DNA of 64,000 bases from an uncultured Gammaproteobacteria bacterium (GCA_963748215.1 CAVVHS010000009.1:320001-384000), one strand, 5' to 3'; counted from the stretch's first letter, positions 1,387 to 62,902 are shown. A program made the numbers and translations. Notes: generated by a model not told the origin, from the sequence alone.

Positions 1387-2841
1387 ATGAGTCTGGACTT
1401 CAACACGCTGGATTTGCTGCGTCAGACTCATCCGGCGTGGCGGCTGCTAAATTCACCCCACGCACCACTGGTTGTGAGTTTTCTGCATCGGGCCTTCATC
1501 GATCCCAACGAGAGGGTGATCGCACAGGCAGACCTGGTGGAAAAACTGGAAGATGAGCTGTTTACACTGCGTGAACAGTTGGGTGATGAGATTTTTCCAA
1601 AGGCTGCACTGGAGTATCTGAATGACTGGGCCGGTAATGACAAGGGCTGGTTGCGAAAATTCTACCGCCAGGGTTCGGATGAGCCGTATTTTGACCTGAC
1701 GCCGGCCACAGAAAAGGCCGTCGCCTGGCTTGGTACCCTGACCGAGCGAAACTTTATCGGAACCGAGTCGCGTCTGTTGACGCTGTTCGAATTGCTCAAG
1801 CAGATCAGTACAGGCAGCGAGACCGATCCGCTAGTACGAATTGCCGAGCTGCAGAGGCGCCGTGATGAAATCGATGCCGAGAATGCTCGTGTGCTCGAGG
1901 GTGATATACCACTGCTGGACAACACGGCGCTGAAGGACCGCTTTCAGCAGTTCATGTTGATTTCGAGGGAATTACTCTCTGATTTTCGTCAGGTGGAGCA
2001 TAATTTCCGGTTGCTGGACCGGGGGGTGCGAGAACGGATCGCACTGTGGGAAGGAGGCAAGGGAGAATTGCTGGAGGAAATCCTGGGTGAGCGCGACACC
2101 ATTGCTGATTCTGATCAGGGACGCAGCTTTCGTGCATTCTGGGACTTCCTGATGTCCAGCGCACGACAGGAAGAATTCAGTCATTTGCTGGATCGGGTAT
2201 TGGCCCTGCCGGCGGTTGCCGAACTCAATCCGGATGCCCGTACCCGGCACGCACACTATGATTGGCTTGAGGCCGGTGAACATACCCAACGAACCGTGGC
2301 CCAACTTTCGCAACAGCTGCGCCGTTTTCTCGACGATCAGGCCTGGCTGGAGAATCGTCGCATTATGGAGATACTGAGAAGCATCGAAAGCAAGGCGCTG
2401 AGCGTGCGCGCGAGACCGCCGGATGGTGAGGTTGCAGTGATTCCGGCTATCGGGGTTGATATCGAACTGCCGATGGAACGACCGCTGTATTCACCGGCGC
2501 TGAAGATGCGAATCGCCGATCTCATCCTTGATGCAGAAGAGGCGGAGGTGGATGCCGCAGTGCTTTTTTCCCAGGTCGCTATCGACAAGGCGAAACTGTC
2601 GACGCATATCCGTCGTGCCCTGCAAGAAGTTCCGCAAATTACTCTGCAAGAACTGTGTGCACGATGGCCTCTCCAGCACGGATTGGCTGAACTGGTCGCC
2701 TATCTCGAGTTGTCGTGTGAAGATTTCAGATACACGATTGATGAGGCAGAGCAGGACAGTATCGTTTGGTGGGGCACGAGTCGTGATGGAGTGAAACAAA
2801 AGAAGCAGGCACAGCTTCCGCGGGTGATATTCGTTCGATGA
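1387..2841 (+). CDS. jetA: Wadjet JetA (DUF3375)
   Basis: 484 aa, HPAWRLL...PL, FIGTESRL, SDQGRSFRAFWDFL motifs; first of four overlapping genes. Confidence 0.9.
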   Translation: MSLDFNTLDLLRQTHPAWRLLNSPHAPLVVSFLHRAFIDPNERVIAQADLVEKLEDELFTLREQLGDEIFPKAALEYLNDWAGNDKGWLRKFYRQGSDEPYFDLTPATEKAVAWLGTLTERNFIGTESRLLTLFELLKQISTGSETDPLVRIAELQRRRDEIDAENARVLEGDIPLLDNTALKDRFQQFMLISRELLSDFRQVEHNFRLLDRGVRERIALWEGGKGELLEEILGERDTIADSDQGRSFRAFWDFLMSSARQEEFSHLLDRVLALPAVAELNPDARTRHAHYDWLEAGEHTQRTVAQLSQQLRRFLDDQAWLENRRIMEILRSIESKALSVRARPPDGEVAVIPAIGVDIELPMERPLYSPALKMRIADLILDAEEAEVDAAVLFSQVAIDKAKLSTHIRRALQEVPQITLQELCARWPLQHGLAELVAYLELSCEDFRYTIDEAEQDSIVWWGTSRDGVKQKKQAQLPRVIFVR

Positions 2842-3503
2842 ACAGCGAACAGGAAACCGGGATAACAGGTGCGGCACAGGGCCTGTCATCTCTGGTCATT
2901 CCCTTGCTCAAGGGCGTGATCTATCGCGATGAAGCAACCGCGCGTGGCACCGGCCAATGGAACGCTCTGCTCGATCTGCAGGCACGAGTGCGCGATTATG
3001 TATCCGTGATAGGTTTGGAACTGGTGCTGGACGAGGCCGAAGGTTATGCCTTCCTGCGTGCGCGTGGTCATGAGGATGAAGAGAGTGCGAAAAAATTGCC
3101 ACGCCTGGTGGCACGCCGGTCACTCTCGTTTCCGGTCAGCCTGTTGCTGGCCCTGTTGCGCAAGAAGCTGGCTGAGTTCGATGCAGGTGGTGGCCAGGAC
3201 GTGGAGGCGGGCAGGTTGGTGATGTCACGTGATGACATTGTCGAACTGGTGCGCGTTTTCCTGCCCGACACCAGCAACGAAGTCCGTTTGATGGATCGTG
3301 TGGATGGCGATATCAACAAGGTTGTCGAGCTGGGTTTCCTGCGCCGTATGCAGCCGCAGCCGGGGCAGCAGGCCCCGGAATTCGAGGTGCGCCGCATCCT
3401 GAAGTCCTTCGTCGATGCGCAATGGCTGGCTGAATTCGACGCACGTTTGGCTGCCTATCAGGCGCAACTTAGCGAGCAGGAACCCGATAAACGTGATGTC
3501 TGA
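2838..3503 (+). CDS. jetB: Wadjet JetB (DUF4194)
   Basis: 221 aa, [36 protein letters not shown]; ATGA overlap with jetA. Confidence 0.9.
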
Positions 3504-6500
3504 ATCTCCGCATACACCCGGACTGGATTTTGTTGCCGACGATACCCTGACGGGCTTTCGGCTGCAGCGGCTGGAGGTCTATAACTGGGGTACCTTTGAT
3601 AGACGAGTCTGGATCTTGCAAGCCGACGGCAACAATGCGCTGCTGACGGGTGATATTGGATCTGGCAAATCGACTCTGGTCGATGCCGTCACGACCCTGC
3701 TGGTGCCAGCGCACCGTGTGGCCTACAACAAAGCCGCCGGCGCCGACAGCAGAGAGCGGACGCTCAAGTCCTACGTCCTGGGTTATTACAAGACGGAGCG
3801 TAGTGAAGTCAGTGCCGCGGCAAAGCCCGTTGCCCTGCGTGATAACAGCAACTATTCAGTTATCCTCGGTGTGTTTCATAACGCCGGGTACGATCAGACA
3901 GTGACCCTGGCGCAGGTATTCTGGATCAAAGACGCGCAGGGGCAGCCTGCGCGTTTTTTTGTGGGTGCCGAGCGGGGTCTTGCCATCGCGAGCGACTTTG
4001 CCGGTTTCGGTACAGAGATAGTCTCGTTACGCAAGCGCTTGCGTGGAGAGGATGTTGAAGTGTTCGACAGCTTCCCACCCTACGGTGCCTGGTTCCGGAG
4101 ACGTTTCGGAATCGAAAACGAGCAGGCAATGGAGCTGTTTCATCAGACCGTTTCCATGAAATCCGTGGGCAATCTTACCGAGTTTGTCCGCAACCATATG
4201 CTCGAGCCATTTGATGTGATGCCGCGCATCGCGGCTCTTATCGCACACTTCGATGACCTGAATCGTGCTCACGAGGCGGTTCTCAAGGCCAAGCGACAGA
4301 TTGAGTTGTTGATGCCACTGGTGGCTGATTGCGATCGCCACCTGGAAGTGGCCAGTTCCACAGAAGATCTGCGCGGTTGCCGCGAGGCCTTGCGCATGTA
4401 TTTTGCAGTACTCAAGCTCGAACTCCTGGAGCATAGGATTACCGGACTGGGGGAGGAATGGGCGCGTCAGAACTTGCGCATCCAGGACCTCACGGAACAT
4501 CGGGATGCGCAACGTGCCCGGATTGTTGAGTTTAAACAAAGTATTGCCGACAATGGTGGCGACCGGCTGGAACGTCTCACGGAAGAGATGCGCGTCAAGG
4601 CGAGTGAGCGTGACGTTAGAAAGGCCAAAGCCGATCGCTACGCGGACCTGGTGCGAGCCGCCGGCGGGCATCCAGGTACGGATGCGGCTGCCTTCCAGGG
4701 ACAACACAAGGAATTCCAGCGTCAATTGGAGCTGTCCGCTGCGCGTGAGGCAGAACTGCAGAATGCACTGACCGAACAGACCGTGGAACTCCGTCAGTGC
4801 AAGCAGCAACATGACCAGCTCACGGCTGAGATCGACAGCCTGAAGGCCCGGCGCAGCAATATCCCTGCTGAACAGATCCGAATGCGCGACGCCCTGTGTG
4901 ATGCTCTGAATTTGTATACTGCTGACCTGTCGTTTGCCGGAGAGCTGCTGCAAGTGCGTGAGGATGAGCGGGACTGGGAGGGGGCTGCCGAGCGGTTGTT
5001 ACATAATTTCGGCCTGTCATTGCTGGTACCGGATGCCCATTACCAACGGGTCTCGGAGTGGGTGGATCGTACCCATCTGCGTGGCCGTCTGGTCTACTTC
5101 AGGGTGCGCGCTGGCATCCGTGGTGAGTTGCGGGCGCTGCACACTGATTCTCTGGTGCGCAAGCTTGCGATCAAGCCCGATACACCGTTTTACGAGTGGC
5201 TCGAAAGCGAGCTCGTGCGCCGTTTCGACGTTGCCTGCTGTGCAACCGGTGAGCAGTTCCGGCGTGAGACAAGGGGTATTACCCGGGCGGGCCAGATCAA
5301 GTCACCTGGCGAACGCCACGAAAAGGATGACCGACACCACATCAATGACCGCCGCCGTTATATATTGGGCTGGACCAATACCGGCAAGATTGCCGCCCTG
5401 GAGGCCGAACAGCGGCAACTGGAGATGCGGTTGGGCGAACTGGGGAGTCGCGTCGCGAAGGTGCAGTCCGGGCAGGCCGCCCTCAGCAAGCAGCGAGATC
5501 TGTTGCTGAAACTCGATGAATATCGCGATTACCGGGAGCTGGACTGGTGTTCTCTGGCCGCCGAGGTGGCGCGGCTTGAAGAGGAGAAACGGCAGCTGGA
5601 GAGTGCCTCTGACATGCTCAGGGAACTGACCGGCCAACTGAATGCGCTGGCACAATCATTAACTGCAACCGAGAAACAGCTGGAGGAGCGCCTGGCCGGG
5701 CGGGCCAGAACCGAGCAGAAACAGGAGGACGCCGCTGCCCTGCAGGTGCAGACCCGGACATTGCTTGCAGAACCGGTGGTTCAGGCCCATGAGGTTCGAT
5801 TCACGGCCTTGGATAAACTGCGTGCCGAGGCCCTGGGGGAGCATCGATTGACCGTGGAGTCCTGCGACAACCGCGAGCGTGACATGCGCGAATGGCTGCA
5901 GGCTCGAATCGACGCAGATGAATCACGTCTTAAACGGCTGGGTGAGAAGATTATTCGCACAATGACCGAATACAAGGAGGCCTTCCGGCTGGAAACGGCG
6001 GAGGTGGATGCCAGTATCGAGGCGGCACATGAGTACAGCGCAATGCTGGTTGCACTACAGGCTGATGATCTGCCGCGTTTCGAGGCGCGCTTCAAGGATC
6101 TGCTTAACGAGAACACCATCCGCGAGGTGGCCAACTTCCAGTCGCAACTCGCCCGCGAACGCGAGGAAATCAAGGAGCGCATCACGCGCATCAACGAATC
6201 GCTGGCGCAGATTGACTACAACCCGGCACGCTACATAAAAATCGAACCCCGGCCGAGTACAGATGCCGAGATTCGAGACTTCCAAAACGAGTTGCGCGCC
6301 TGTACCGAAGGTGCGCTAACCGGTTCCGAAGATGCGCAGTATTCAGAAGCCAAGTTTTTACAGGTCAAGCATATCATCGAGCGTTTTCGCGGGCGTGAGG
6401 GCCAGACTGAGTCTGATCGCCGCTGGACTGCCAAGGTGACTGATGTACGCAATGGCTTTACATTCGCTGCCAGCGAGCGCTGGCGCGAGGATGATAGCGA

Positions 6501-6873
6501 GCACGAACACTATTCCGACTCGGGCGGGAAGTCAGGTGGTCAGAAGGAGAAGCTCGCCTACACCATCCTGGCCGCCAGTCTGGCCTATCAATTTGGGCTG
6601 GAATGGGGAGCAGTGCGCTCGCGATCGTTCCGCTTCGTGGTGATTGATGAGGCATTCGGGCGTGGCTCGGATGAGTCCGCGCAATACGGCCTACGGCTGT
6701 TCGCGAAACTCAATCTGCAACTGTTGATCGTCACACCCCTGCAGAAAATCCACATCATAGAGCCCTTCGTTAACAGTGTCGGTTTTGTCCACAACGAGGA
6801 CGGCCGAGCCTCCATGCTACGCAATCTCACCATCGAGGAGTACCGGGAGGAGAGAGCGAGGGCTGTCCAGTGA
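3496..6873 (+). CDS. jetC: Wadjet JetC, SMC-like ATPase
   Basis: NWGTF, Walker [10 protein letters not shown], long coiled coil, signature KSGGQ, Walker B VVIDEAF; ATG 3496 (overlapping jetB end) preferred over 3415. Confidence 0.92.
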
Positions 6874-8078
6874 ACTGGACCGGTCCCCGTGAACTGCATG
6901 TGCAATTACTGCGCTGTTGGAATCGCGGTGATCTGCTGACCGGAATGGTTTCCGGTGAATCAATATTCCCCCAACGATTGACATTGAAAGCACCCACATC
7001 CGCACAGATGACGGATGACTTCGACAAGGTGCGCGACTGGATCGCCGCCTTACGCTCACTGCCACACTACCGGATCGAGATGCGCGAGGTGCGTCATCGG
7101 GTACTCGGCGCAAACGAGGTGCCGGCGGCAGTCTGGGTGGATACTCTCGACGATGCCCTGGCCATATTGGGTAAATCCCGTGAGGCCAAACGTTTCGCGA
7201 GTATGGTCGAGCGTACTCGACTGCGGCAACCTCTGCTGCTCGAATGGCTTGCCTGCAAGCCGCTCAAGGCGCACGAGTTGGCTGAGGTCTGGGATCGGCT
7301 CCTGGATGTAACCGAGTGGGTCCAGCAGCACCCTCGTCCGGGCATATACCTGCGACAGATTGATATCCCCGGAGCCCATAGCAAATTCATCGAGGCACAC
7401 AGGGGCGTTCTGCTCCAGTGGCTGGACCGGCTCTTGCCGCCTGAGGCTGTCAATAACAGTGCCACTGGCGTCTCCGGGTTTGCCAGCCGGTACGGATTTC
7501 GTGACAAGTCCCAGCGTATTCGTCTGCGTGCGCTAGATCCCGAGCATGCACTATTACCGCGGTCGGTGAATGCGGACATTACTCTGGATGCTGAAAGCTT
7601 TGACTCCCTGTCGCCTGCAGTTTCACGGGTATTTATCACGGAGAATGAGATCAATTATCTGGCTTTCCCGCCGGTGCCAGACAGCCTGCTGATATTCGGC
7701 GCCGGTTACGGTTTTGAGGTGCTGGCACAAGCTGCATGGTTGGCTAGCTGCCAGGTGTATTACTGGGGTGACATTGATACACACGGTTTCGCGATACTGG
7801 ATCAGCTGCGCGCATATCTGCCCCATGCGCATTCCCTTTTAATGGACCGTGATACGCTACTGGCCTTCAAGGCCCAATGTGGCAGGGAGGAAAAACAGAC
7901 GCTTCGGGACTTGTCTCGCCTGAATACTGAGGAGCGCGCACTGTACGATGACCTGAGAGACAACCGTCTGGGCAAGAATTTGCGCCTGGAGCAGGAACGC
8001 ATCGGATTCGGCTGGGTCGAGAATGCACTGGCTTTATTGCTGTCTCGCAAGCAGATTTCCAGCATGGAAAATGGTTGA
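6870..8078 (+). CDS. jetD: Wadjet JetD, Toprim nuclease (DUF3322+DUF2220)
   Basis: [44 protein letters not shown]; catalytic E and DxD intact. Confidence 0.92.
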
Positions 8079-8150
8079 GGGTACAGGAGGAAGAGCTGGC
8101 CCTGCGCGGACCTTCCAGCATTTTGTCTGTATTGCTGTCGCCATTCCTCT

Positions 8151-8560
8151 GTGGGAGTTTTGCGGGACTCGGTTATGCATCGTCCTGCATCGTGGTGCAC
8201 AGATCGCAACGGGCGCTACGGTAAGTTGTTGAATAAAAAGGCTGAAAAATCGCCTTTCTGTACTTTTAATCTGATGGTCGTTGGTTCGAGCCGAGGACGA
8301 CGCAGTCGGCCGAGACAACAGCGTCGCATCAGCGACGCTGACCCCGAAGGGGCGAGGGCGCAGCCCGAGTAATCCAACACGACCCACCATTAAATCAATC
8401 ACTTAATTCCGATTTTTCATCCCGGTAAAAATTGATTGCGGGGATTTTGCGGGGATTAACCGCAAATCTTCTCCATTAACATAATCTCGCCCGTAGTAAA
8501 TTCAATTGCTTGCGCGTCAGCAACCGATTCGAACTGTCGTTTCCTGGACCAAAAAATCCG
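8151..8560 (+). repeat. att-like repeat copy 1 (tRNA-Lys 3' half with 82-nt T-loop insert)
   Basis: Arm-like GGGAGTTTTGCGGGA; phased TGCA repeats; IHF-like TAAGTTGTTGAA 8222-8233; tRNA-Lys fragment 8262-8289; insert 8290-8371; ATCCAACACGACCCACCA 8372-8389; IHF consensus AATCAATCACTTA 8393-8405; arm GGGGATTTTGCGGGGAT 8440-8456. Confidence 0.9.
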
Positions 8561-8586
8561 CTGCTCGTAATCGTGTAAGGGTTCAT

Positions 8587-8604
8587 GGGGACAGATCACG
8601 TTTT
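8587..8604 (+). repeat. Solo copy of the RAYT terminal repeat
   Basis: GGGGACAGATCACGTTTT, 17/18 identical to 13308-13325. Confidence 0.75.
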
Positions 8605-13307: not shown

Positions 13308-14133
13308 GGGGACAGACCACGTTTTTCAATCTGATTTGGCGGGTCTTCCCGGGTTTCTACGTGTAACACGTCGTTGCAGCATGTGGGAGATCTCAGACTT
13401 AAAGCGTTCATTACCCAGAGCATAGTTACCATGCGAAGCAGTCCGGATCTCGGCAAGCAGATCGGGGTCTATAGCTGTGTGAAACAGGCCACGGTAATTG
13501 GCAAGACGCGTTTCTTCACTCCCTCCGAGTGCCAGGTATTCTGCGTGTGGCGTCAGGCCGTCGTGCTGTGCGCCTTGACCGTTAATCCTGTAACTTGACC
13601 ACTGATATTCTGCCGGGTGCTCTACCATGACTGCGCGAACCGGGTTCAATTCGATATATCGGTAACAGGCAAGTACATAGTGACTTTCCTGAACCAGACA
13701 GGAGCGAAAACGGCCTTCCCAAAGCGTTCCGCTGCGCTGGTAGCGACGGTTACTGTATTGGACGTAACGCTGACCAAGCTGTTTCATGAGCAGAGCGGCG
13801 CTATCACGCGCTGCTGGGGTAAGGAGCAGGTGTACATGATTCGTCATCAGGCACCAGGCATGTACACTGCAACGATATCTAGCGCCCTGCTCAGCCAGGG
13901 TATCAAGGTAATACTGGTAATCGCAGTTGTCGTAGAAGCAGGGGCTGCGATTATTGCCGCGCTGGATGATATGCCAGGGAATGCCAGGAATGACCAGGCG
14001 GGCACGGCGTGGCATAAGAATAACCTTGTTCAATTTAGAGTAAGAGTTGAATGGTGAATGCATGAATACGGCGGTTATGTAGTGAATGTGCGTGAAGGTG
14101 CGTCAGTAATTGACGAAAACGTGGTCTGTCCCC
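13308..14133 (-). mobile_element. RAYT/Y1 transposase element with perfect 18-bp inverted ends
   Basis: GGGGACAGACCACGTTTT (13308-13325) and AAAACGTGGTCTGTCCCC (14116-14133) bracket the transposase; the left repeat abuts its stop codon. Confidence 0.8.
13326..14015 (-). CDS. REP-associated tyrosine transposase (Y1_Tnp, HUH)
   Basis: MPRRAR...HIIQRGNNR, WCLMTNHVHLL (HUH), GTLWEGRF, YIELNPVRA, YQWSSY; start at MPRR preferred over 14063. Confidence 0.9.
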   Translation of the reverse strand: MPRRARLVIPGIPWHIIQRGNNRSPCFYDNCDYQYYLDTLAEQGARYRCSVHAWCLMTNHVHLLLTPAARDSAALLMKQLGQRYVQYSNRRYQRSGTLWEGRFRSCLVQESHYVLACYRYIELNPVRAVMVEHPAEYQWSSYRINGQGAQHDGLTPHAEYLALGGSEETRLANYRGLFHTAIDPDLLAEIRTASHGNYALGNERFKSEISHMLQRRVTRRNPGRPAKSD

Positions 14134-14220
14134 CCCCCTTTTTCTTTTTTCAGAGACCAGTTGTTAGAGATCTAAACAGGTGCTATTGTTAGACCAGTTA
14201 ATGGCCCATTTGGAACTGGT

Positions 14221-14812: not shown

Positions 14813-14977
14813 ATCGTCGGGTCTTTATGACGCACTGGCACAGAACGCGTGTGTGTGAAGAATTGTTGCTCGTGCGGCTATGAGCAGTTTGAATTGTATT
14901 GGCTCTCTAGTAACCCGGGGTGGTTCATACAGTGCATTGTTGCTCTGGTCTTGGGCCAGATATAGGCAAACGACCCT

Positions 14978-15393
14978 GTGGGGATTTTGCGGGGATCAGT
15001 TTTGCATTGTTATGCATCGTGGTGCACAGTGTGCAACGGGCGCCACGGTAAGCTGTTGAGATTAAAAGCGTAAAAATGCTTTTTCTGTCCTTTTAATTCG
15101 ATGGTCGTTGGTTCGAGCCGTGGACGACGCAGTCGGCCGAGACAACAGCGTCTCATAGGCGACGCTGACCCCGAAGGGGCGAGGGCGCAGCCCGAGTAAT
15201 CCAACACGACCCACCATTAAAACAGTCACTTCCCTCTGATTTTTCATCCCGGTAAAAATGGATTGTGGGGATTTTGCGGGGATTAACTGCAATTTTTTCT
15301 CGTTGGGTCAATTTCGCCTGTAACCAATTCAATTGGTTGCGTATCAGTAGTCGACTCGAACAGCTATTTTCTGGACCAAAAATCCGATGCTCG
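14978..15393 (+). repeat. att-like repeat copy 2
   Basis: Same layout as copy 1: tRNA-Lys fragment 15090-15116, insert 15117-15198, ATCCAACACGACCCACCA 15199-15216, arm repeats on both sides. Confidence 0.9.
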
Positions 15394-40444: not shown

Positions 40445-40569
40445 ATCTCACGGTCGTGTCAGACGTTCAAGCCATAGTGCGAACCGCGCTCTCTATGCGG
40501 GCAGACTGCGTCCCGGGTGTTTATGGCGTATTCATAAGTATGCCGCCGATTGGAAAGGCAGAAATCCCT

Positions 40570-40815
40570 GCGGGGATTTTGCGGGACTCGGTTGTGCATT
40601 GTTATGCATCGTGGTGCACAGTGTGCAACGGGCGCCACGGTAAGTTATTGAAGTGAAAGGCTGAAAAATCGCCTTTCTGTCCATTTAATCCGATGGTCGT
40701 TGGTTCGAGCCGAGGACGACGCAGTCGGCCGAAACAACTGCGTCGCATCAGCGACGCTGACCCCGAAGGGGCGAGAGCGCAGCCCGAGTAATCCTTCACG
40801 ACCCACCCTTTAATC
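40570..40815 (+). repeat. att-like repeat copy 3 (no right arm; variant tRNA 3' end)
   Basis: Left arm, TGCA repeats, IHF-like box, GGTTCGA 40702-40708, insert 40709-40790, then ATCCTTCACGACCCACC 40791-40807. Confidence 0.88.
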
Positions 40816-40994
40816 AAGTTAGTAACAGCTAGATTTCAGCGCTCTTTTCATGTAGACGTTATATAGCCGAGTTACCCACCGACAGGCGTGACTGGCGGAA
40901 CAGAACCAGAACTCGAACATCGAGATACCACTCCATGCGAATGATTCACAGACAGGGAGTCATATAACCCGAAACGTTCATGAGGTAGTGTAAC

Positions 40995-42137: not shown

Positions 42138-42257
42138 CAGGATTGGTCAGCAGTGCAGGTTGCACCGTGTGTATTGCGAATTGCTGTTCAGGCGGCTTCG
42201 GCAGCTGGTAAAGACAGTGGCCATGAGATTTCCGACTGGTGGAAGCCGGAAATCCTT

Positions 42258-42594
42258 GCGGGACTTTTTGCGGGACTCGGTTATGCATCGTCCTGTCTCG
42301 TGGTGCAGAGTGTGCAACGGGCGCCACGGTAAGTTATTGAAGTGAAAGGCTGAAAAATCACCTTTCTGTCCTTTTAATCCGATAGTCGTTGGTTCGAGCC
42401 GAGGACGACGCAGTCGGCCGAGACAACAGCGTCGTATAGGCGACGCTGACCCCGAAGGGGCGAGGGCGTAGCCCGAGTAATCCAACACGACCCACCATTA
42501 AAGGGGATTCTGCGGGGATTAACCGCAAATTTTCCTCGTTGGTTAAATTCTGCCTGTAGAGAATTCTTGGTTGCGCACCAGTAACAGACTCGAA
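42258..42594 (+). repeat. att-like repeat copy 4 (about 50 bp deleted right of the core)
   Basis: GGTTCGA 42391-42397, insert 42398-42479, ATCCAACACGACCCACCA 42480-42497; the right arm follows almost immediately. Confidence 0.9.
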
Positions 42595-55354: not shown

Positions 55355-55765
55355 CGGGACTTTTACGGGACACAGTCCTGCACAACTATGCACCGTTATG
55401 CAATCGAGGCAACGGACGCCCCAAATTACCCGTATAAAAACAATCATATACATGCCAACTCTGTCACTCATAATGCTGGGGTCGGTGGTTCGAGCCGAGG
55501 AAGACGCAGTCGGCCGGGACAACCGCGTCGCATTAACGGACGCTGACCCCGAAGGGGCGAGGGCACAGCCCGAGTAATCCAACACGACCTACCATTAAAA
55601 CAACTAGTTACCTCTTGTATTTCTTCCCACAAAAATTGATTGTGGGGATTTTGCAGGGATTAACCGCATACTTTCTCGTTGGCTTGATTTCACCTGTAAT
55701 AAATTCAATTGGTTGCGAATCAGTAACCGACTCGAACTGTCGTTTCCTGGACAAAACATTCGATG
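55355..55765 (+). repeat. att-like repeat copy 5 (tRNA-Met-type left half, Lys-type right half)
   Basis: CGGGACTTTTACGGGAC arm; TCACTCATAATGCTGGGGTCGGTGGTTCGA 55464-55493 (CAT anticodon); 83-nt insert 55494-55576; ATCCAACACGACCTACCA 55577-55594; right arm as in copies 1 and 2. Confidence 0.88.
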
Positions 55766-56035
55766 CTTGTCGTCGAATGTCGCAGAGTGGCGAATTCGGA
55801 CATACGAAACTGATATCGGAACAACTTCGCTGCATTGTTCAGCCTATGGGGAAATTCCATTTCCTGGCGCCGCTATTTTCAGCGGCGAATTGCCGAGCGT
55901 TCAGGCCTCTGCTGTTCCACATCATGAGTCAGCAGTGAACGAATGACTGATTCAATCAGCCTCCCTCAGGGAATCGTAATTTTCGCCGATAATCAACCAA
56001 CTAGCTGAACAGGCGTTGCACGCGGCAGTGATGCA

Positions 56036-57521: not shown

Positions 57522-58343
57522 ATGGCCCGGTCGATGTACAGCCAGCACTGGTACCGGGTGGCGGACATCAGGCCTCGGCTGCGCGGACATATCAGCCTGC
57601 ACCGTCATTACTACCGTGGTAACCGTTGCTATCTCCTGCAGGATGAGGCCACCGGTGCATTTCATCGCTTCGGCCCCGAAGTCTACGAAATGATCGGCCA
57701 GATGGATGGCGTACGCACGGTCAACGAGATCTGGGAAGAGACACTCGACCGGCTTGGCGATGACGCGCCGGGCCAGGAAGAAACGATGCACCTGCTCGGA
57801 CAGCTGCATGCCGCTGATATCCTGCAGTGTGATCTGACGCCGGATGCGCTCGAGGTGTTTCACAGGCATCGTCACAAGCAGCGCCAGGACTGGAAGCAGC
57901 GCGTGCTGAATCCGATGTCGTTACGGCTGCCGTTGTGGGACCCGGACCGTTTCCTGTTACGCTGGCTGCCGTACCTGCGCCCGGTGTTCACCTGGGCCGG
58001 GCTGGCCGTGTGGCTGCTGGTCGTGGCCACGGGCGTGGTGCTGGCCGGCCTGCACTGGGAATCCATCACGGCAGACATCGTTGACCGGGTGCTGAATCCC
58101 TGGAACCTGGTCATCATGTTTTTCACCTATCCCTGCATCAAGCTGCTGCACGAGTTCGGGCATGCCTTTGCCACGCGCCTGTGGGGTGGAGAGGTGCACG
58201 AGATGGGCATCATGTTCCTGGTGCTCATGCCCATCCCCTATGTCGATGCGACCGCGTCGGCCGGCTTTCGGGAGAAGCACCGGCGCCTGGCGGTGAGTGC
58301 GGCGGGCATGATGGTCGAGCTGTTTCTCGCACCGCCGCGGTGA
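57522..58343 (+). pseudogene. Peptidase M50-family membrane metalloprotease, 3'-truncated
   Basis: PqqD-like N-terminus, LPLWDPDRFL, HEFGH zinc motif, GGEVHEMG.M, PYVD; breaks after AGMMVELFLA and runs into adhesin repeats. Confidence 0.8.
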
Positions 58344-61300
58344 TCAACGTGAATAATGCCCCAACCGGCAGCGTGACGATCGACAACATCACTCCTGCCG
58401 AGGGTGACACGCTCACCGCATCCAACACCCTGGCCGATGTGGACGGCCTCAGTGGTCCGGTCAGTTACCAGTGGTACCGTGACGGGCTGGCGATCGGCGG
58501 CGCGACAGGAACAACGTATACCACTACACAGGCCGACGTGGGCGCAGTGATTTCGGTGGCTGGCAGTTACACCGATGACCAGGGCACAGTCGAGAGCGTG
58601 AGCAGCGCGGGCACCGCCGCGGTCACCAACGTCAATAATGCCCCGACGGGTGCGGTGACGATCGACAACACCACGCCGGCCGAAGGCGATACGCTCACGG
58701 CATCAAACATCCTGGCCGATGTCGATGGACTTAGTGGCCCGATCAGCTACCAGTGGTACCGTGATGGCGTGTCGATCGGTGGGGCCACAGCCTCCACCTA
58801 CACGACGGTCCAGGCCGACGTCGGTGCAGTAATCACTGTAATAGCGAGCTATACCGACGACCAGGGTACGGCCGAGAGCGTGAGCAGCACCGGTACGTCA
58901 GCAGTCACCAACGTCAACAATGCCCCGACGGGTTCCGTCAATATCGGTGGTACGCCGACCGAGGACCAGATGCTCACGGCCTCGAACACCCTGGCGGATG
59001 TGGATGGTATGGGGCCGGTTTCGTACCAGTGGTACCGGGATGGTGTCGCCATCGTCGGCGCAACCGCGAGCACCTATATCCTCGGTGATGCCGATGTGGG
59101 TACGACGATTACGGTCGCGGCCAGCTACACCGACGGTCAGGGTACGAATGAGAGCGTGACCAGTGCCGGTGTGGGTCCGATCGCCAATGTTAATGACGTG
59201 CCGACCGGCAGCGTCACGATCGACAACACTACGCCGGCCGAGGGCGACACGCTGACGGCTGCCAACACCCTGGCCGATGTCGACGGCCTGAGCGGGGCGA
59301 TCAGTTACCAGTGGTATCGTGACGGTGTGGCGATCGGTGGGGCTGCCAATAGTACCTATACCACCGTACAGACGGATGTGGGTGCCGTAATCAGCGTGGT
59401 CGCCAGCTACACCGACGACCAGGGTACACCCGAGAGTGTCAGCAGTACGGGTACCGCGGCAGTCACCAACGTCAACAATACCCCGACGGGTTCCGTCAAC
59501 ATCGGCGGTACGCCGACCGAGGACCAGACGCTCACGGCCTCGAACACCCTGGCGGATGTGGACGGGATGGGGCCGGTCTCGTACCAGTGGTACCGGGATG
59601 GTGTCGCCATCGTCGGCGCGACCGGAAGCACCTATACCCTGGGTGATGCCGATGTCGGTACGACGATGACGGTCGCGGCCAGCTACACCGACGGGCAGGG
59701 TACGAGTGAGAGTGTGACCAGCGCCGGTGTGGGTCCGATTGCCAGCGTCAACGATGTACCAGCAGGCCAGCCGGTCATTACCGGTACGGTAGCCGAGGAC
59801 CAGGTGCTCACGGCAGACACCTCCGGCATCAGCGATGCGGACGGGCTGGGTACCTTTGGTTACCAGTGGTATCGCGATGGCATGGCCATCGGCGGTGCGA
59901 CGAACTCCACCTATACCCTGGGTGATGCCGATGTCGGCGCCACGATATCCGTCGAGATCAGTTACACCGACGGGCAGGGAACCAGTGAGGCGATTACCAG
60001 CGCCGGTGTGGGTCCGGTTGTGAACGTGAACGATGCACCGGCTGGGCTACCGGTTATTGCCGGCACACCTGTGGAAGATCAGATAATCACGGTTGATACA
60101 ACAGGCATCACTGATGCCGACGGCATCAGCGGTGCGTTCAGCTACCAGTGGTACCGCGATGGTGTCGCCATTGCCGGTGCAAATGGCGGGGGCTATATCC
60201 TTGGGGATGCGGATGTTGGCGCAATCATTACCGCTACCGTCAGCTACGTCGATGACCAGGGCGCCAGTGAGTCCGTTTCCAGTGCCGGTGTCGGCCCGAT
60301 TGCCAATGTCAATGATGCGCCGACCGGCAGCGTTTTTATCGACAACATGACACCGGCTGAGGGCGACATGCTCACCGCGTCAAACTTCCTCGTTGACGCC
60401 GATGGCCTGAGCGGTGCGATCAGTTACCAGTGGTACCGGGATGGCATCGCCATCGGCGGTGCAACAGCCTCCACCTACACCAGCGTGCAGGCAGATGTGG
60501 GCGCCATGATCAGCGTGGTGGCAAATTACACCGACGACCAGGGCACCAGCGAGAGTGTCAGCAGCGCCAGCACGGCGGCGGTCACCAACGTCAACAATGC
60601 CCCGACCGGCAGCGTCATCATCGATAACATGACACCGGCCGAAGGCGACACCTTGACCGCCAGCAACACCCTGGCGGATGTCGATGGCCTGAGTGGCCCA
60701 ATCGGTTACCAGTGGTATCGCGACGGGGTTGCCATCGGTGGAGCCACCGGCAGTGCCTATACCACCGTGCAGGCCGACGTCGGTGCGGTAATTACCGTCG
60801 TGGCGAGCTACACCGATGACCAGGGCACGGCCGAAAGCATAAGCAGCGCCGGGACCGCGGCGGTCACCAACGTCAACAATGCTCCGACCGGTGCGGTGAG
60901 CATCAGCGGCACACCGGCCGAGGATCAGACGCTTACGGCCTCGAACACGCTGGCGGATGTCGACGGGCTTGGAGCCATCAGCTACCAGTGGTACCGCGAT
61001 GGTATTGCCATTGCCGGTGCGACTGGAAGCGCCTATACCCTCGGTGACGCCGATGTAGGTGCCACGATAACGGTGGCCGCCAGCTATACCGACGGACAGG
61101 GTACAAATGAGAGTATGACCAGTAACGGAGTGGGTCCGGTGGTCAACGTGAACGATGCTCCAACGGGCAGTGTCACCATCGAAAACCCGACGCCGGCCGA
61201 GGGTGACATGCTGACGGCGAGCAACACCCTGGCAGACGCTGATGGCCTGAGCGGTGCGATCAGCTACCAATGGTACCGGGATGGCGTGGCCATTGCCGGT

Positions 61301-62902
61301 GCCACGGGATCGAATTACACCACAGTGCAGGGAGACGTCGGTAGCGTCATTACGGTGGTGGCAAGCTACACCGACGATCAGGGCACGGCCGAGAGTGTGA
61401 GCAGTACGGACACAGCGGCAGTCACCAACGTCAACAATGCCCCGACGGGTTCAGTGAGCATCAGCGGCACGCCGGCAGAAGACCAGGCGCTCACCGCCTC
61501 TAACACGCTGGCGGATGTGGATGGTATGGGACCGGTCTCCTATCAGTGGTATCGGGATGGTGTTGCCATTACCAGCGCGACCAGGTCCTTCTATACCCTG
61601 GGAGATGCTGATGTGGGCGCGATGATTACCGTCGCCACCAGCTATACCGACGGGCAGGGTACCAGTGAGAGCGTGACCAGTGCGGGCGTAGGTCCGGTTG
61701 CCAATGTCAATGATCTGCCAGGTGGCTTGCCGGCCATCACAGGCATGGCGCAGGAAGACCAGGTCCTGGTCGCCGACACATCCACCATCAGCGATGCTGA
61801 CGGTCTCGGAGCCTTCAGCTATCAGTGGTTGCGTGACGGATCAGCCATAGCCGGTGCCACCGGCAGTACCTATGCCCTGGACGATGCCGACGTCGGTAGC
61901 CAGATCAGTGTGACGACCAGTTACATCGATGCCAAGGGTACTGCAGAGAGCCTGACTTCAGCGCAGACCGCGCCGGTCGCGAATGTGAATGATATTCCGA
62001 CCGGTGCCGTGACGATCGATAACCTGATGCCGGGTGAGGGCGACACCATCAGCGTCAGTCATACGCTGGCGGATGCCGATGGTATCAGCGGCCCGATCAG
62101 TTATCAGTGGTACCGCGGTGGCGTCGCCATTGCCGGGGCAACCGGCATGACCTATACGACCACCCAGGCCGATGTCGGTACTGTCATTACCGTAGAGGCG
62201 AGTTACACCGATGATCAGGGTTTCGCCGAGAGCCAAAGCAGTGTGGGCGCGCTGGTTGCGGGTGTTTTTGTCGACCCCAGTGAAGATACAACTGATGAAA
62301 CAGTTGTGCCGCAAACAGAACCCCCTGTGGTTTTGCGTGACAGCATTGGCGCGACCCCGGTGGGAAATGAAGAGCAATCCGGTGTAATGAAGGAAATAAT
62401 TGCCATCCACGAAGTTGCAGCGGAAGGCGATACCGATTACCGGGTCGATCCGTATCAGTATCTGGACGATGCTGACCTTGAACTGGATGAAGTTCGGAAA
62501 GACAACGTTATAAAACATGCGGTGCGCAGTATTGTCCAGGCCGGGTATCAGATAACCGAGGAGATGCTGCAACTGTTTGATCTTGTACGTATCAAGATGA
62601 GTGAAGTGGACGATCAGCCGGCGAGTGGAGTTATCAAGTCTGTGGGTGGTCTCGCCCTGTCTGTGTCTGCGGGCGTTGTGAGCTGGGTGCTTCGCGGCGG
62701 TGCCCTTGCTGCGAGTATGCTGTCATCAGTCTCTGTGCTGAAAGGGTTTGATCCCTTGCCAGTCATGGACATGAATCCCAAGAAGGGTAACCGTCCCGGG
62801 CATGAAGATGATGCAGACAGTGATGTTGATAATATGTTCGAAGAGGCGGATCTGGAAGAGAAGGGAGAAGCTTCGCAGACAGCAGGGAAAGCGGATAAAT
62901 GA
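58330..62902 (+). CDS. Large repetitive surface protein/adhesin, 5'-truncated; 14 Ig-like repeats and a conserved hydrophobic C-terminus
   Basis: 14 units of ~92-94 aa (NVNNAPTG...YQWYRDG...YTDDQG), acidic linker, SVSAGVVSWVLRGGALAASMLSS...FDPLPV; no plausible start or signal. Confidence 0.85.

Follow-up and report, generated by a model that had tools for sequence, protein, structure and literature searches.

A four-hairpin insert in displaced tRNA-Lys halves

The subject of this analysis is an 82-nt insert of four hairpins that occurs five times in a 64,000-nt stretch of DNA from an uncultured Gammaproteobacteria bacterium (GCA_963748215.1 CAVVHS010000009.1:320001-384000; the whole stretch, which is part of contig C9, is called the window below), each time inside the 3' half of a tRNA-Lys(UUU). 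We conclude, with a probability of roughly 0.6, that the insert is a core of the RtT type which entered displaced tRNA-Lys halves as a discrete insertion and which may act there as a structured RNA module. Its identity as the structured core of an RtT-type tRNA-linked repeat, of the same kind as the rttR units of Escherichia coli, is very probable when taken by itself. RtT (Rfam family RF00391) is a tRNA-linked repeat that was first noticed beside E. coli tyrT.

An 82-nt query recovered the five copies where a preliminary description of this DNA had placed them, all on the + strand and with 92-100% identity: copy 1 at 8290-8371, copy 2 at 15117-15198, copy 3 at 40709-40790, copy 4 at 42398-42479 and copy 5, which is 83 nt long, at 55494-55576. 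The query has nine matches in the genome, eight of which are on C9, all on the + strand; the ninth is partial and adjoins a tRNA-Val. The C9 copies beyond the window are found at C9:317923 (100%; 2 kb ahead of the window), C9:400670 (83%, with hairpin 2 deleted) and C9:408680 (79%), and identity to copy 1 drops with distance from the tRNA-Lys gene, through 100, 95-96, 92, 83 and 79%. A 22-nt piece of hairpin 2 occurs four times in the window at up to three mismatches, with 0 occurrences expected from 100 shuffles.

Each copy splits the tRNA-Lys(UUU) 3' half exactly between TTCGA and ATCC. In copy 1 the piece preceding the insert (8263-8289, + strand) comprises the anticodon loop, the variable region and the 5' T-stem up to TTCGA, and the piece following it (8372-8389, + strand) is the last 18 nt of tRNA-Lys, ATCC...ACCA. 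As had been described, excision of the insert from any copy restores a tRNA-Lys(UUU) 3' half that extends from the anticodon loop to CCA and that, in copy 1, has one mismatch. The sequence ATCCAACACGACCCACCA is the 3' end of an uninterrupted tRNA-Lys(UUU) gene at C9:310571-310646, located 7-98 kb upstream of the copies on the + strand, which is the sole tRNA-Lys(UUU) found by ARAGORN. ARAGORN detects no tRNA within the window, which makes each of the five copies a fragment. All eight displaced tRNA-Lys halves of C9 (8/8) contain the insert, and the functional gene does not. The insert is also more conserved than the sequence that adjoins it: over the five window copies its mean pairwise identity is 93%, compared with 84% for the preceding 27-nt tRNA piece, 72% for the upstream arm of the junction and 55% for the downstream arm.

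Relationship to the RtT family

The preliminary description had stated that a match to a known Rfam or repeat family would refute the novelty of the insert. By that criterion the insert is no new class of element, since it matches RF00391, weakly in the window and above the cut-off for its paralogues. At the curated gathering score of 45 bits a scan of the window returns no match, and the match to RtT emerges when an E-value threshold is applied and the paralogous loci are included. The full-length alignment of the model to positions 8257-8389, which contain copy 1, scores 35.8 bits (E 1.2e-5 in a 231-nt search); copies 2, 3 and 4 score 32.6, 31.3 and 28.7 bits. Copy 1 and RF00391 have in common the motifs GGUUCGAG.CGAG, CGAGA.AAC, CCCGAAGGGGCGA and CGAGUAAUCC. 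Alignments A2 and A3 contain the conserved core of the family, namely GGUUCGA, hairpins joined by the linkers CGAG, CGAGA.AAC, CCCGNAGGG(G)CGAGG and CGAGUA, and then AUCC with the tRNA 3' end. The 3' part consists of the same 18-19 nt as the end of the tRNA gene located upstream on the same strand.

We also built a covariance model, R1, from 11 inserts of this genome with their flanks excluded. R1 recovers the four tyrT/tyrV units of E. coli at 31.6-43.0 bits, and scores copies 1 to 5 of the window at 79, 67.7, 70.0, 70.9 and 58.0 bits, respectively. Because matches are obtained in both directions, from RF00391 to the Lys copies and from R1 to E. coli, we identify the insert with the RtT core. 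The units of the E. coli K-12 tyrT-tyrV locus (n=4), which score 132.9-137.5 bits against RF00391, consist of GGTTCGA, a 68-nt four-hairpin core ending in GAGTA, ATCC and the tRNA-Tyr 3' end.

Genome-wide, RF00391 has 18 matches at E<=0.01, and the seven that exceed 45 bits all adjoin tRNA genes. These paralogues score 45.9-61.2 bits and include copies beside tRNA-Glu, tRNA-Gln and tRNA-Ser. Homologous T-loop inserts occur beside tRNA-Glu(UUC), Gln(UUG), Gln(CUG), Ser(UGA), Ser(GGA), Ser(GCU), Arg(CCG) and Val(GAC), often in short tandems made of the tRNA 3' end, a terminator, a T-arm-like hairpin, GGTTCGA and the insert; the tandem unit is 169 bp at the tRNA-Glu locus of this genome and 178 bp in E. 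coli. Matches to RtT are present in 33 of the 37 genomes of the genus (24 over the cut-off), in 25 of 150 families sampled elsewhere in the class (5 over the cut-off) and in one of 14 control genomes, namely E. coli. Of 5426 complete E. coli genomes, 4738 carry the label 'RtT sRNA', each at 1-10 places.

Several observations weigh against assigning the window copies to this family. Their scores against RF00391 (28.7-35.8 bits) are under the cut-off, and copy 5 is not listed at all at E<=0.01. The 5' hairpin with the loop AUGAGAA (GGAUGAGAAC) is deleted in the model alignment of the window copy; E. coli has this hairpin, as do the copies beside tRNA-Glu, tRNA-Gln and tRNA-Val in this genome. 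The window copies are not tandems of 170-180 bp; they are 1.7-25.6 kb apart, at successive spacings of 6827, 25592, 1689 and 13097 bp, with unique cargo between them. The window copies are a divergent RtT variant, which is under the Rfam cut-off, is devoid of the 5' hairpin and is embedded in island junctions.

A tRNA intron (group I or archaeal) was considered as another identity for the insert and was rejected, as the window copies have no tRNA 5' half and no intron family is among the Rfam matches at E<=1.

Two further forms of the core were noticed elsewhere in the genome. A longer subfamily, with about 70 extra nt in the last hairpin (GGTGAGACCATTTTTACGGGCAT...), occurs beside tRNA-Val(GAC), in a tRNA-Ser(GGA) row and in an array on contig C6 (C6:898740-898905, - strand; C5:187900-188030, - strand; C6:848-877 kb). 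At C8:225311-225170 (- strand) there is a full-length pseudo-tRNA-Gln(UUG) with the insert in its T-loop; its acceptor 3' strand is decayed. It is located just upstream of the intact gene, and another unit is located downstream.

Folding, covariation and strand bias

The four hairpins named in the preliminary description are well supported. Folded as single-stranded DNA (ssDNA), the insert reaches -24.4 kcal/mol (z = -4.33), and none of 200 shuffles is as stable. The change of the last loop of copy 4 from GCA to GTA is present as described, together with a U.G wobble in hairpin 2 of that copy. Paralogous inserts, whose stem sequences are unrelated, each fold on themselves into consecutive hairpins, and exactly four hairpins are predicted in 29 of the 50 distinct inserts of a genus-wide collection; this set was chosen by a pattern requiring TTCGA and ...GTA directly before AT, so that its flanks are no test. 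Insert identity is 0.65-0.94 within tRNA types and has a mean of 0.71 between types, with no clean separation.

The stems covary. The covariation score for alignment A5 is 0.331, as compared with 0.120 after shuffling (none of 500 shuffles reaches the observed value) and with at most 0.085 when the pairing partners are slid. In alignment A5, a model-based alignment of 88 matches with 80 distinct rows, 90.1% of the cells pair and double changes are found in 10 of the 17 pairs; hairpin 3 is invariant in this alignment and hairpin 1 lies outside model R1. The figures from A5 support the fold and should not be read as probabilities, as its rows are kin. MAFFT with RNAalifold, which was also tried on flanked copies, misaligned hairpins 1 and 3 and therefore retrieved none but hairpins 2 and 4; it was replaced by folds of individual sequences and by the model-based alignment.

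Of the two strands, the + (tRNA-sense) strand gives the more stable fold in 38 of the 50 inserts with RNA parameters and in 48 of the 50 with DNA parameters, and this set contains 63 G.U pairs versus 2 C.A mismatches. Between E. coli and this genus the fold has been preserved through compensatory change, which implies selection on the folded + strand. Two points have to be set against an RNA interpretation of these results. The rows of the covariation and strand tests are related copies, and A5 is fitted to the model. In addition, GNA triloops predominate, as had been claimed, accounting for 96 of 164 predicted loops; 88 of these are closed by C-G. C-GNA-G triloops are unusually stable in DNA, and C-G-closed GNA triloops are more typical of stable DNA hairpins than of RNA hairpins.

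Filled and empty sites

The preliminary description interpreted the insert as an element that targets the tRNA T-loop. Its precise bounds, the existence of empty counterparts and a preference for T-loops bear out this interpretation; the preference is not absolute, as three copies occupy D-loops. Among the loci compared, tRNA-Lys halves are filled in this genome (seven distinct halves) and in genomes G015, G008 and G006, and they are empty in G023, G045, G050 and G051; intact tRNA-Lys genes are empty in five of five cases. In both G050 and G051, what follows the upstream arm is a tRNA-Lys half that extends from anticodon loop to CCA without interruption by an insert. The most direct pair is the right junction of the Wadjet island, which is filled here (copy 1) and empty in G051, with flanks that align with the window over more than 200 nt. 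The insert bounds are exact to one ambiguous A, there is no duplication, and TTCGAATCC is restored exactly. Searching the literature on RtT and on pseudo-tRNA or T-loop insertion, we found no paper that presents the RtT core as a T-loop insertion; as far as these searches show, neither the filled/empty pairs nor the D-loop copies have been described. As a point against a discrete insertion, gene conversion, with the real tRNA gene as donor, could have turned filled sites into empty ones.

The 43 matches of R1 in this genome comprise 26 strict T-loop copies, 3 T-loop copies with a longer 3' part, 3 D-loop copies and 11 that are composite, degenerate or weak. The D-loop copies are in 5' tRNA-Ser fragments, in tandem before intact genes, and follow GGTCGA or GGTTGA. 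The common target word is GGT(T)(C)GA followed by A, and orientation to the target is fixed. The tRNA-Ser(UGA) locus has three 172-bp tandem units upstream of the gene (C6:477140-477700, - strand), each of which combines the leader of the gene and its first 22 nt with an RtT-type core that follows GGTCGA in the D-loop. At C5:191665-191742 (- strand), tRNA-Ser(GGA) is preceded by a D-loop copy of a similar kind.

In the reading that we prefer, an RtT-type core acting as RNA, an insertion event would have put the core into a non-essential tRNA half. Were a copy to enter the functional gene, the sole tRNA-Lys(UUU) would be lost. The core may then have spread along the array together with the junction modules, or by recombination between them.

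The same observations can be explained by a selfish non-autonomous element, which was the main interpretation of the preliminary description. Such an element would seek GGT(T)(C)GA^A in T-loops (occasionally D-loops), would be moved or copied as a folded single strand by an HUH (Y1) or other enzyme acting in trans, and would persist only in dispensable, spare tRNA pieces. We consider this possible and on balance unlikely. The filled and empty homologous sites, the exact restoration of the target with no duplication and the fixed orientation agree with it, and so does the likeness of the sites in T-loops (GGTTCGA^A) and D-loops (GGTCGA^A, GGTTGA^A). The hairpins begin within a few nt of each end and there are no terminal inverted repeats. 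The strand bias of the fold is stronger with DNA parameters (48/50), and C-GNA-G triloops make up 88 of the 164 loops. Copy 5 is informative in this regard, since it conforms to the conservation contrast that had been pointed out for it: compared with copy 1, its insert has 93% identity, its decayed tRNA piece 70% and its upstream arm 54%. Finally, the 43 R1 matches here contrast with 1-8 RF00391 matches per genome in 32 of the 36 other genomes of the genus.

The distribution of the insert speaks against mobility. No near-identical inserts were seen in different tRNA contexts; the stems are wholly different between tRNA types, and hence there is no sign of recent jumps between loci. Nothing similar to the window junction was found in 50,697 phage records, and among plasmid records the junction matches one 49-nt piece of a Providencia megaplasmid. 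The E. coli unit matches 27 non-mobilizable, chromosome-like 'plasmid' records and, among the phages, one mislabelled Salmonella contig. Of 5,426 E. coli genomes, three were examined for the position of the unit, and in these it occupies the tyrT locus only; the others were assessed by the label 'RtT sRNA'. Spread within the array can be explained by recombination between the 420-bp junctions, and the conserved 5' hairpin of canonical RtT, which lies outside the insert, is not explained by a simple insertion.

RAYT and other Y1 genes

A selfish element of this kind would require an enzyme, and the preliminary description had suggested the neighboring RAYT. This link was not upheld, as the gene is flanked by an inverted repeat of its own which is unlike the insert, and three other Y1 genes likewise have unrelated flanks. 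The RAYT-like Y1 gene (13326-14063, - strand) is bracketed by an 18-bp perfect inverted repeat, GGGGACAGACCACGTTTT (window positions 13310-14140), and this repeat word has 59 dispersed copies in the genome at up to two mismatches. An 843-bp unit containing the gene is duplicated with 99.9% identity at C9:315959-316801, in the island nearest to the tRNA. There are five PF01797 matches in the genome; their flanks are the GGGGACAGACCACG inverted repeat (59 copies), repetitive extragenic palindromes (REPs) of the GTAG type and other sequences, none of them insert-like. As far as can be read from the sequence, the insert does not appear to be a substrate of the neighboring RAYT.

Evidence bearing on a possible RNA

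Bösl and Kersten reportedly demonstrated experimentally, in 1991, a stable RNA from an E. coli RtT unit. In E. coli K-12, rttR (one of the four units) is annotated as a 171-nt non-coding RNA. That experiment is also mentioned in PMC3318445. Judging from E. coli and from conservation, the tRNA-sense strand may be the active strand. As RNA, the four hairpins would replace the T-loop of a truncated tRNA-like module, whose T-stem, acceptor strand and CCA would provide a tRNA-style 3' end, as in the 171-nt RttR of E. coli. Action as an RNA module is thus proposed by analogy, and we would place it slightly short of even odds.

Metatranscriptomes provide partial matches to this locus. Only two runs, both from estuaries, contained any part of the stretch (0.14 and 0.08 of its words), in contigs that may be DNA. 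A 203-nt contig covers positions 8207-8386 with 24 differences and therefore comes from a relative; carry-over of DNA is possible in this case too. Another estuary contig, of 151 nt, corresponds to the downstream arm (8440-8587) with no substitutions and one inserted base, and may be RNA or carried-over DNA. Transcription of the window copies is putative, as no sigma-70-like promoter was found upstream of them and each is preceded by a hairpin that could end transcription. If the RNA reading holds, the presence of the core at island junctions follows from one insertion or conversion event and subsequent spread with the 420-bp junctions.

Junction modules and the island array

The inserts are part of larger repeated junctions. 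Module 1 (8149-8567), with an upstream arm, the tRNA half with its insert and a downstream arm, is followed on the same (+) strand by module 2 (14976-15393), module 3 (40551-40817; upstream arm and core only), module 4 (42240-42594; with a short downstream arm) and module 5 (55460-55908). The repeated sequence is confined to about 420 bp, and the cargo between modules is unique. The upstream arm contains TGYGGGA/TTTTGCGGGA and ATGCATCGT repeats and a covarying hairpin, and the downstream arm contains the same TGCGGGG words. The intact tRNA-Lys gene is adjoined by the downstream arm alone, the last copy is without a downstream arm, and the identity block of empty sites runs from the anticodon loop to CCA. 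This arm layout, together with the decay of identity with distance, is the layout expected of islands that integrated successively at a tRNA gene.

The anatomy thus suggests that the displaced tRNA-Lys halves are attachment-site (att) type junction cores of at least eight integrase-less islands, which extend over 98 kb behind the intact tRNA-Lys gene, and the junctions are probably the att sites of one island family that lost its integrases. In agreement with this, there is an identity block from a tRNA loop to the 3' end, the arms consist of repeated motifs, and the junctions bound acquired DNA. It counts against att sites that no tyrosine integrase (PF00589) is encoded on contig C9; the att reading consequently rests on the anatomy and on a shared arm motif. 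No serine recombinase was found in the genome, and no integrase was found near the Lys junctions in five related genomes. The arm motif is found again, with 35 of 39 positions identical, in front of a tRNA-Arg(ACG)-type half that has no insert (C6:884.3 kb), and a frameshifted integrase gene that adjoins tRNA-Arg(ACG) on contig C5 contains it in its 3' end. BLASTN of the downstream arm against the region by the frameshifted gene returned only the short word TTGCGGG, which is a loose hint. The possibility that a conserved stretch of the downstream arm encodes an integrase C-terminus was rejected: the 26-aa frame is never part of a long gene, and the frames found, in 14 of 37 genomes, are of 26-76 aa.

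A second array is located at C6:807-884 kb (- strand, about 77 kb), where junctions with RtT cores are found beside a tRNA-Arg(ACG)-type 3' end and a half without an insert stands at the head. The tRNA-Arg(ACG) gene proper is located on a different contig (C5:1800-2742), beside the frameshifted integrase gene.

Two explanations attach the insert to island integration itself. In the first, which the preliminary description had also raised, the insert acts as a lock: if the island nearest to the tRNA were excised site-specifically, the 5' half of the tRNA would end up fused to a 3' half that contains the insert, with the result that islands are fixed or their loss is lethal. We consider this improbable. 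Because the identity block starts in the anticodon loop, excision would indeed destroy the only tRNA-Lys(UUU). The extent of that block to CCA in empty sites, the single tRNA-Lys(UUU) gene reported by ARAGORN, the occurrence of the insert in 8/8 displaced halves and not in the functional gene, and the lack of any remaining integrase in the array are all compatible with a lock. Copy 3 (window 40709-40808) has GTTGG 5' of the insert and CCTTC 3' of it, which are T-stem variants of the tRNA-Lys genes of different species; this hybrid T-stem indicates a past crossover in the T-loop or inside the insert. However, any insertion would lock an island, which leaves unexplained why compensatory changes have preserved a four-hairpin fold between E. 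coli and this genus; most RtT copies are behind tRNA genes without island cargo; the point of integrase crossover is taken from general knowledge of tRNA-targeting integrases; and with no integrase there is nothing to lock now.

In the second, the folded insert is a working part of the recombination site, recognized by the island integrase or an accessory protein as attC is by integron integrases. The constant position of the insert within the junction core, its single-strand fold and the two long arrays with insert-bearing junctions (C9 310-409 kb and C6 807-884 kb) fit this idea. It is nevertheless highly unlikely, since junctions of the same family border islands without an insert in G050, G051, G023 and G045, the half at C6:884.3 kb has the same arm motif and no insert, the E. 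coli tyrT repeats contain the same core with no island, and neither an integron-type nor another tyrosine integrase on the contig nor a serine recombinase in the genome was found. The lock and the folded att site are possible, and they explain less than the RNA and selfish-DNA readings do.

Cargo of the array

The islands carry Wadjet, an MscK-type channel, RAYT, ParDE, a cation-transport block, an FKBP isomerase, flavoproteins, and a secretion protein with a large repeat protein. A complete Wadjet operon of the JetABCD type (1387-8078, + strand), in the island that precedes copy 1, encodes DUF3375, DUF4194/MksE, a 1152-aa SMC-like ATPase and a DUF3322+JetD_C protein; the orthologous island of G051 has a broken Wadjet and an AbiEii gene. 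A 25-kb cation and stress island (16804-40444) encodes two tandem-Usp proteins, a Na/Ca exchanger, two Na/H exchangers, a P-type ATPase, Mrp-type antiporter subunits, a LysR regulator and a baeRF family 10 protein. No high-identity match in other species was obtained for the FKBP cargo that separates copies 3 and 4. At 58181-62902 (+ strand) a GAF-HlyD protein precedes a 1573-aa Ig-like repeat protein, whose DNA has tandem repeats of 279, 282 and 558 bp.

Significance

RtT entered the databases with the sequencing of the tyrT locus and is routinely labelled in E. coli. The locus described here presents the RtT core without its usual 5' hairpin and tandem setting, and thereby offers a handle on whether it is a functional RNA or a site-specific selfish insertion; the filled/empty pairs and the D-loop copies make the nature of RtT directly testable. 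Were T-loop-seeking insertion to prove true, the tyrT repeats, known for four decades, would be relics of such insertions, and insert-bearing halves would serve as safe landing and locking sites, with tRNA loci growing cassette arrays without a resident integrase. As divergent copies escape the Rfam cut-off, island junctions of this kind look unexplained in annotation. The integrase-less arrays, 98 kb behind tRNA-Lys and about 77 kb on C6, are a useful case for the build-up of defence and stress genes at tRNA loci.

Comparison with known systems

The surroundings of the insert, though not the insert itself, resemble the tandem accretion of islands that target tRNA genes, in which integrase-less, att-flanked elements may be arrayed at a tRNA site (CIME-like elements). 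In both cases islands stand in a row behind an intact tRNA gene, the junction consists of an upstream arm, a 3' half and a downstream arm, the last junction is without a downstream arm, and the cargo is accessory (Wadjet, toxin-antitoxin, ion transport, adhesin). The array differs in having no integrase in 98 kb and an RtT core in every displaced half.

Miniature elements of the IS200/IS605 group and REP/RAYT systems are characterized by precise, oriented insertion guided by a short word, by end hairpins and by the absence of target duplication. The insert shares with them precise and oriented insertion beside a short conserved word, the lack of a target duplication, hairpins near its ends, a fold biased to one strand and a genome that encodes Y1 genes. 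In contrast to these elements, it flanks no Y1 gene, has four hairpins with conserved linkers instead of two end hairpins, and is confined to tRNA-like sequence where they are dispersed; the REP families of this genome are sequences other than the insert.

The comparison with RtT/rttR of E. coli concerns the insert itself. The window copies differ in scoring under the cut-off, in being without the GGAUGAGAAC hairpin, in retaining a longer native tRNA piece, from the anticodon loop onward, and in being separated by 1.7-25.6 kb of cargo as opposed to forming tandems of 169-178 bp. In both, however, a GC-rich four-hairpin core splits the T-arm between TTCGA and ATCC, the 18 terminal nt of the cognate tRNA, CCA included, come after it, the linkers are CGAG, CGAGA.AAC, CCCGNAGGG(G)CGA(G/A)G and GAGTA, and the unit is located downstream of a tRNA gene on the same strand.

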